A stretch of DNA of 64,000 nt from Escherichia coli (GTDB lineage Bacteria; Pseudomonadota; Gammaproteobacteria; Enterobacterales; Enterobacteriaceae), in NCBI RefSeq assembly GCF_041248615.1, contig NZ_CP158426.1; one strand, written 5' to 3'. Position 1 is the first letter of the stretch. Each line of letters begins with the position of its first letter. Below are positions 50,577 to 51,755 of this stretch, one piece after another. Made by a program: the position numbers and the translations under genes. The notes beneath the pieces were generated by a model. That model saw only the letters and a program-made list of their open reading frames with translations. It was not told where the DNA came from and ran no database searches.

Positions 50577-51755
50577 ATGACTGCTGTAAGCCAAACCGAA
50601 ACACGATCTTCTGCCAATTTTTCACTCTTCCGCATCGCTTTTGCGGTTTTTCTCACCTACATGACCGTAGGGCTGCCGTTGCCGGTTATCCCGCTGTTTG
50701 TTCATCATGAACTGGGCTATGGCAACACTATGGTCGGCATTGCCGTCGGCATTCAGTTTCTGGCTACGGTGCTGACGCGTGGCTATGCCGGGCGACTGGC
50801 CGATCAATATGGCGCAAAACGTTCGGCGCTTCAGGGGATGTTAGCTTGTGGTCTGGCGGGGGGCGCGCTGCTGTTGGCGGCGATTTTGCCCGTCTCCGCA
50901 CCGTTCAAATTTGCCCTGTTGGTCGTCGGGCGTTTGATTCTTGGCTTTGGTGAAAGCCAGTTACTGACGGGCGCTCTGACCTGGGGATTAGGCATCGTTG
51001 GGCCAAAACATTCCGGCAAAGTGATGTCATGGAACGGAATGGCGATTTACGGTGCCCTCGCTGTTGGTGCGCCGCTTGGCCTGTTGATTCATAGCCATTA
51101 CGGTTTTGCCGCACTGGCGCTCACCACAATGGCATTACCCTTACTGGCGTGGGCCTGTAACGGCACAGTGCGCAAAGTACCGGCCCTGGCGGGAGAACGT
51201 CCATCGCTATGGAGCGTTGTCGGGCTTATCTGGAAACCAGGGTTAGGTCTGGCACTACAAGGCGTTGGTTTTGCGGTTATCGGGACTTTCGTTTCGCTCT
51301 ACTTTGCCAGCAAAGGATGGGCGATGGCGGGCTTTACTCTTACCGCGTTTGGCGGCGCATTTGTCGTGATGCGTGTCATGTTTGGCTGGATGCCGGACCG
51401 TTTTGGCGGCGTGAAGGTGGCGATTGTCTCTCTGCTTGTAGAAACGGTGGGCTTGTTGCTGCTCTGGCAAGCCCCAGGTGCGTGGGTCGCATTAGCGGGC
51501 GCGGCGTTAACCGGAGCCGGATGTTCGCTTATCTTTCCTGCGCTGGGCGTGGAGGTGGTTAAACGCGTCCCCTCACAAGTTCGCGGCACCGCACTGGGCG
51601 GTTACGCCGCGTTTCAGGATATCGCCCTCGGCGTCTCCGGGCCGCTTGCGGGAATGCTGGCGACCACGTTTGGTTACTCTTCGGTATTTCTTGCCGGGGC
51701 GATCTCTGCGGTGCTGGGAATTATTGTCACGATACTGTCGTTTCGTCGGGGTTAA
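50577..51755 (+). CDS. yfcJ: MFS transporter YfcJ (392 aa)
   Basis: 12-TM MFS-type ORF. Confidence 0.9.

Follow-up and report, generated by a model that had tools for sequence, protein, structure and literature searches.

[quoted passage not shown] In their survey, prokaryotic convergent overlaps are most often 4 nt long, and 1218 of the 1890 convergent overlaps in 58 genomes are at least 5 nt long (Tables 2 and 3), so that ~36% are exactly 4 nt. E. coli has a total of 58 convergent overlaps, and in 19 of them a rho-independent terminator is predicted within the partner gene. At the level of transcripts, a 2025 ExcludonFinder survey (PMC12288877) treats convergent transcript overlaps as regulatory and lists 165 convergent excludons in E. 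coli MG1655, flk-yfcJ among them, with overlap in at least 50% of 58 RNA-seq samples. Excludon pairs are generally of higher synteny, and in the listed cases the two genes lie on average 95 nt apart. According to Wang et al. (10.1101/2022.10.23.513370), polymerases on convergent genes collide at defined positions only if the nascent RNA forms a stem-loop. REP elements located between genes stabilise 3′ UTRs and serve as partial Rho-dependent terminators (Harris et al., 10.64898/2026.03.23.713779).

Here we describe the junction of the convergent genes yfcJ and flk in a 64,000-nt stretch of E. coli DNA (the window). We consider it likely that this junction is an ordinary, mutationally locked 4-nt stop-stop overlap, with transcripts that are probably ended by Rho and with little regulatory consequence. 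The overlap as such is already known, as it is annotated in K-12, belongs to the class described in 2007 and concerns a gene pair included in the 2025 list. It is defined by three features:

50577–51755, + strand: yfcJ coding sequence, 392 aa, stop TAA at 51753–51755 (ORF list and PGAP).
51752–52747, − strand: flk coding sequence, 331 aa, stop TAA as the reverse complement of 51752–51754 (ORF list and PGAP).
51752–51755, both strands: TTAA, the 4-nt stop-stop overlap (sequence, mutation table and enumeration of possible overlaps).

The two TAA stops have the central TA of the tetramer in common. The third base of the final yfcJ sense codon, GGT (51750–51752), falls within the flk stop, and the third base of the final flk sense codon, CGT (reverse complement of 51755–51757), falls within the yfcJ stop. 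A preliminary description of this DNA had claimed that the stops overlap at TTAA, and this is borne out by the sequence, the ORFs and the PGAP annotation of three E. coli genomes. Gene ends are identical in NZ_OW967178.1 (the 100%-identical record, source genome), the MG1655 RefSeq coordinates (flk 2437950–2438945, yfcJ 2438942–2440120) give the same 4-nt overlap, and the yfcJ-flk segment of strain E24377A, at ~74% DNA identity, retains both the TTAA end and the same annotated overlap. A 2.5-kb query around the junction matched NZ_OW967178.1 with 100% identity, and 5,422 of the 5,426 complete E. coli genomes contained it.

The E24377A allele (NC_009801.1, 2608396–2610572; L002 in our locus set) is a case of its own. 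Protein identity is 85% for YfcJ and 65% for Flk, the surrounding fabB and pdxB are normal, and E24377A is the only one of the 5,426 genomes with its best match in the 60–80% identity band. Judged from these identities, the sequence suggests that the allele may have been replaced by recombination from outside E. coli.

Enumeration of the possible arrangements rules out convergent overlaps of 1, 2, 3 and 5 nt and leaves 4 nt as the minimum, permitted solely as TTAA, CTAA, TTAG or CTAG. Among the ten convergent pairs in the window, yfcJ/flk is the sole overlapping one and hence the tightest, the other nine gaps being 7, 54, 64, 76, 79, 105, 120, 123 and 178 nt. With 4 nt as the modal value and 58 convergent overlaps in E. 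coli, the yfcJ/flk overlap is real, not exceptional. The 7-nt gap separates a LacI-family regulator from cscA, which converge within a sucrose-utilisation cluster (18293–23870) inserted beside a truncated dsdX pseudogene; the cluster also holds an annotated aminoimidazole riboside kinase and an MFS transporter, and is followed by a DUF4942 fragment and a tRNA-Arg gene (24080–24154). Elsewhere in the window, a 415-aa 'hypothetical protein' is annotated at 26390–27637 (− strand), between mlaA and fadL.

Both gene identities given in the preliminary description hold up against curated family models. YfcJ matches NCBIfam NF009048 with 703.8 bits over residues 1–392 of 392, as well as Pfam MFS_1, and is an MFS transporter annotated as 'arabinose transporter'. 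Flk matches the NCBIfam equivalog NF007987 with 506.7 bits and is a flagella biosynthesis regulator with a hydrophobic C-terminal tail; weak Pfam matches of Flk to GemA and Gluconate_2-dh3 fell under the cut-offs and were disregarded. A second NCBIfam MFS-transporter subfamily, NF003477, is matched by YfcJ with 474.6 bits; we take it to be the YhhS family, the paralogue of YfcJ. Convergent transcript overlaps may occur at both paralogues, YfcJ and YhhS; the published excludon list (Table 1 of PMC12288877) also includes dcrB-yhhS.

Could one stop or frame assignment be wrong, so that the overlap vanishes on re-annotation? Nothing was found in favour of such an artefact. Both proteins match the curated full-length models to their last residues, and in more than 70 species the C-termini of Flk and YfcJ lie at homologous positions, with a spacer between the genes or with none. 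Flk ends in its hydrophobic tail, with ...W[LIM][LVIA]x in most species (three Citrobacter loci and one Leclercia locus carry L instead of the W), while YfcJ ends in ...FR[KR]x and is one residue shorter in some outgroups (Buttiauxella, Klebsiella, Kluyvera, Cedecea). Stops, unlike starts, are fixed once the frame is known. The artefact explanation is refuted by the ORFs, the full-length family matches and the conserved C-termini, and we give it virtually no chance of being correct. By the full-length matches and the conserved C-termini, both stops are the genuine ends of genuine proteins, and no revised gene ends were found that would abolish the overlap.

What keeps the two stops together is visible from the substitution table of the tetramer. 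Of its 12 possible point substitutions only two, T51752C (giving CTAA) and A51755G (giving TTAG), spare both stops, and these leave the final residues intact. The other 10 abolish at least one stop and four of them abolish both, extending YfcJ by 51 aa and/or Flk by 26 aa past its C-terminal membrane tail. Once formed, the TTAA arrangement is therefore mutationally locked: purifying selection on YfcJ and Flk keeps the geometry, and the tetramer drifts only among TTAA, CTAA, TTAG and CTAG, as the comparison of loci below shows.

The behaviour of the junction in relatives was followed at 82 loci, consisting of the window, the E24377A allele and 80 yfcJ loci with 3-kb flanks, one genome per species, with the stop position computed for both reading frames at each locus. 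flk lay within the flank at 72 of the 82 loci (the window and 71 others), all from Enterobacteriaceae, and the junctions fell into the following states:

Overlap of 4 nt (the −4 state): 30 of the 72 loci with a nearby flk.
Spacer of 4–123 nt: 31 of the 72 loci.
Insert of 0.7–2.4 kb: 11 of the 72 loci.
flk absent within 3 kb: 10 further loci, some of them on contigs that end early.

The −4 state is found in Escherichia, Salmonella, most Citrobacter and a few others. When the states were mapped on a single-gene neighbour-joining tree of yfcJ, −4 filled the Escherichia-Salmonella-Citrobacter clade save for a single genome, of Citrobacter amalonaticus, whose junction carries 2.3 kb of inserted DNA, and recurred in two other clades, one made up of loci L027, L031, L033 and L037 and the other of Intestinirhabdus and Pluralibacter. 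The record of one member of the former, L037 (CACSKA010000009.1), bears the name 'Chryseobacterium sp. 18061'; its yfcJ-flk locus is enterobacterial, with L027 ('Citrobacter sp. 18056') as its partner on the yfcJ tree, and the assembly has probably been mislabelled or contaminated.

Tetramer usage in the 30 −4 loci was TTAA in 16, TTAG in seven, CTAA in five and CTAG in two, i.e. the only variants seen were the equivalents of T51752C and A51755G and their combination. TGA stops, impossible in the −4 state by enumeration and seen in none of these 30 loci, occur in 7 of 42 non-overlapping loci for yfcJ and in 12 of 42 for flk. Stop-codon constraint together with purifying selection on both proteins fully explains the conservation of the overlap, with no regulatory role needed, and the comparative series shows a stop-stop overlap acting as a mutational trap.

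Where the genes are separated, the DNA between them is mostly structured. Nearly all of the 31 spacers of 4–123 nt contain GC-rich stem-loops or REP-like palindromes, and all of those of 26–123 nt fold strongly (−16 to −62 kcal/mol as + strand RNA). The 31–42 nt spacers of Buttiauxella, Klebsiella and a Leclercia MAG each form a single GC-rich stem-loop, and in Enterobacter, Leclercia and Lelliottia the spacers of 72–93 nt consist of REP-like palindromes paired in inverted orientation. A U-tract follows the main spacer hairpin in 2 of 30 cases on the yfcJ side and in 3 of 30 on the flk side; the idea that the short spacers are canonical bidirectional intrinsic terminators was rejected, as most are without U-tracts. 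Inserts of 1.5–2.4 kb were found at ten loci (L048, L050, L054, L057, L059, L061, L064, L070, L074 and L077), and inserted junctions occur in Kosakonia, Phytobacter, one Citrobacter amalonaticus, one Buttiauxella and others. In the five inserts examined (L050, L054, L057, L061 and L070), the encoded proteins are a GH1 glycosidase or else a PTS EIIC together with a GntR/UTRA regulator. Judging by this gene content, the yfcJ-flk junction is evidently a repeated landing site of putative sugar-utilisation cassettes.

The preliminary description had further held that neither spacer nor terminator stands between the two stops, and the sequence and a terminator scan agree with it. With zero intergenic DNA at the junction, there is no GC-rich hairpin bordered by A- and U-tracts of the kind that makes a bidirectional intrinsic terminator. 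An Rfam scan of 48000–55000 at a permissive threshold returned nothing at the junction, its sole matches being one sub-threshold REP/naRNA4 hit upstream of yfcJ and a spurious lncRNA. On the − strand, the consensus scan found no terminator-like site within yfcJ, and flk read-through RNA (51640–51770) showed no structure beyond shuffled controls (z = +0.36). On the + strand, one element within flk stands out:

51803–51840, + strand: two alternative hairpins in the 3′ coding region of flk (scan and fold).

The first of these is a weak terminator-like stem at 51803–51819 followed by CCATATTTTG. Its competitor, at 51810–51840, has an 11-bp stem and no U-tract and dominates the fold of 51740–51840 (z = −1.93).

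It may be that one of these hairpins is a cryptic intrinsic terminator that ends yfcJ mRNA ~70 nt past its stop, which would create a short overlap of defined length. The site was found by the scan and its stronger hairpin dominates the local fold, and 19 of the 58 known E. coli convergent overlaps have such a prediction in the partner gene (PMC2174442). However, the scanned region gave eight terminator-like sites against 3.3 ± 2.2 in shuffled sequence, which makes single scan matches weak evidence, the fold z-score is modest, and it is the stronger of the two hairpins that lacks the U-tract. As a 30-mer, the element occurs only in E. coli records, including MG1655, and is missing from other Escherichia species, the E24377A allele and other genera. 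No Term-seq 3′ end is recorded at the site (PMC7815308). We therefore regard this explanation as unlikely; yfcJ read-through has no other candidate intrinsic stop than the 51803–51840 element, which has probably arisen by chance. A role of the 51810–51840 hairpin as a conserved terminator or stabiliser was likewise rejected, given its absence outside E. coli proper.

With no terminator to separate the genes, each mRNA ends within the other gene. Untranslated antisense RNA past a stop codon is a classical Rho substrate, and yfcJ and flk, being carried on different mRNAs, are translated independently. Two stretches stood out in the composition profile of the read-through RNAs:

51252–51511, − strand: C-rich, G-poor flk read-through RNA, antisense to yfcJ, 240–500 nt past the flk stop (composition profile).
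52076–52215, + strand: yfcJ read-through RNA with a modest excess of C over G, antisense to flk, 320–460 nt past the yfcJ stop.

Between 51511 and 51252 the flk read-through has a C content of 0.30–0.39, a G content of 0.19–0.25 and a C/G ratio of 1.3–2.07; in the yfcJ read-through, C/G at 52076–52215 is 1.4–1.75. C-rich, G-poor untranslated RNA after the stop is accordingly present on the flk side and in a weaker form on the yfcJ side. On base composition, 51252–51511 is a candidate Rho loading region for flk RNA, and 52076–52215 a weaker candidate for yfcJ RNA.

We propose that each polymerase, on passing the stop, would run into the antisense strand of the partner gene, and that the untranslated read-through RNA would most likely be ended by Rho at scattered positions, most plausibly so for flk with its C-rich, G-poor RNA 240–500 nt downstream. 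The outcome would be complementary 3′ UTRs, in line with the published transcript-overlap listing. Full-length mRNAs are in any case necessarily complementary at their 3′ ends when the stops are separated by neither spacer nor terminator, and the overlapping 3′ UTRs postulated in the preliminary description stand on this geometry and on the presence of the pair in the published list (PMC12288877). Action of Rho at the junction itself appears likely from composition; in the Term-seq and bicyclomycin (BCM) tables of Adams et al. 2021 (PMC7815308), MG1655 2437900–2439699 is free of both 3′ ends and Rho regions, which could reflect low expression or ends formed in another way.

In the same data, Rho-dependent termination in LB is called at MG1655 2440043 (− strand), a position 77 nt inside yfcJ (PMC7815308, supplementary file 2). 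By DirectRNA-seq in 800-nt windows, 236 reads upstream and 15 downstream were counted without BCM, against 266 and 98 with BCM (Rho score 5.8, p = 4e-12). Coverage at this position falls ~16-fold and Rho inhibition restores it ~6-fold, the upstream 800-nt window taking in the 3′ end of fabB, so that some of the signal may be fabB read-through. The position maps to about 50654 in the window and coincides with a further feature:

50630–50656, + strand: short hairpin and T-run, 54–80 nt into yfcJ (scan).

The signal could represent premature yfcJ termination, or the end of fabB read-through past a REP element. In the fabB-yfcJ intergenic region, 50322–50398 (− strand) gave a full-length Rfam match to naRNA4 (RF02564) that remained sub-threshold (49.7 bits against a gathering cut-off of 59.5, E = 9.5e-07), a REP-type palindrome in the fabB 3′ UTR.

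Rho-limited coverage at the 5′ end of yfcJ means that in LB few polymerases reach flk from the yfcJ side, and this low level of transcription across yfcJ argues against strong interference under LB conditions. The transcriptional interference that the preliminary description had offered as an alternative to overlapping 3′ UTRs is probably minor. Taking the weak transcription of both genes together with the Rho stop near the yfcJ 5′ end in LB, the published data point to a small regulatory consequence.

A different interpretation is that the loss of the spacer was adaptive and that convergent transcription, together with cleavage of the complementary 3′ ends by RNase III, makes YfcJ and Flk expression mutually exclusive, i.e. 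that the pair is a selected excludon. Its membership in the MG1655 'excludome', with overlap in at least half of the RNA-seq samples, and the higher synteny of excludon pairs in general (both PMC12288877) would fit, as would the maintenance of the −4 arrangement across three or more genera. However, this retention is fully explained by the stop constraint, and tight abutment is clearly dispensable, since in about half of the related species the genes are separated by stem-loops, REP-like elements or sugar-utilisation cassettes. Transcription across yfcJ in LB is also very low, and a sugar-efflux-type MFS transporter has no obvious functional connection with Flk. We find this interpretation unlikely. 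Its more specific form, in which the spacer-free junction is an adaptive innovation of the Escherichia-Salmonella-Citrobacter lineage that lost its stem-loop insulation and thereby made YfcJ and Flk mutually exclusive through polymerase collision and RNase III, strikes us as very improbable; if true, it would couple a sugar-efflux-type transporter with the flagellar checkpoint protein Flk as a switch.

An ordinary, locked overlap remains our preferred reading of yfcJ/flk. By itself the overlap is of little import and of modest value as a worked example; what is added here is the comparative series of junction states and an explicit argument for the mutational lock. The series also makes yfcJ-flk a handy natural set for testing whether insulation of convergent genes alters their expression.

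Compared with the convergent excludons, flk-yfcJ is itself a listed case, included by overlap of RNA-seq coverage alone; unlike the listed excludons, which average 95 nt apart, its coding sequences themselves overlap. Similar to the bidirectional terminators of Wang et al., the genes are convergent and their transcripts must end in a shared region; the GC-rich stem-loop that lies between them in related genera is, however, missing in E. coli, so that heterogeneous ends are to be expected there and not a defined, programmed termination. As with the REP elements of Harris et al., REP-like inverted palindromes fill the space between the genes in Enterobacter, Leclercia and Lelliottia, while the E. 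coli junction is without REP and has a REP-like element upstream of yfcJ instead. The closest likeness is to the class of Lillo & Krakauer: yfcJ/flk is also convergent, overlaps by exactly 4 nt through one of the permitted tetramers, and has its termination signals likewise forced inside the partner coding sequence, and we see no difference in kind between this pair and that class.
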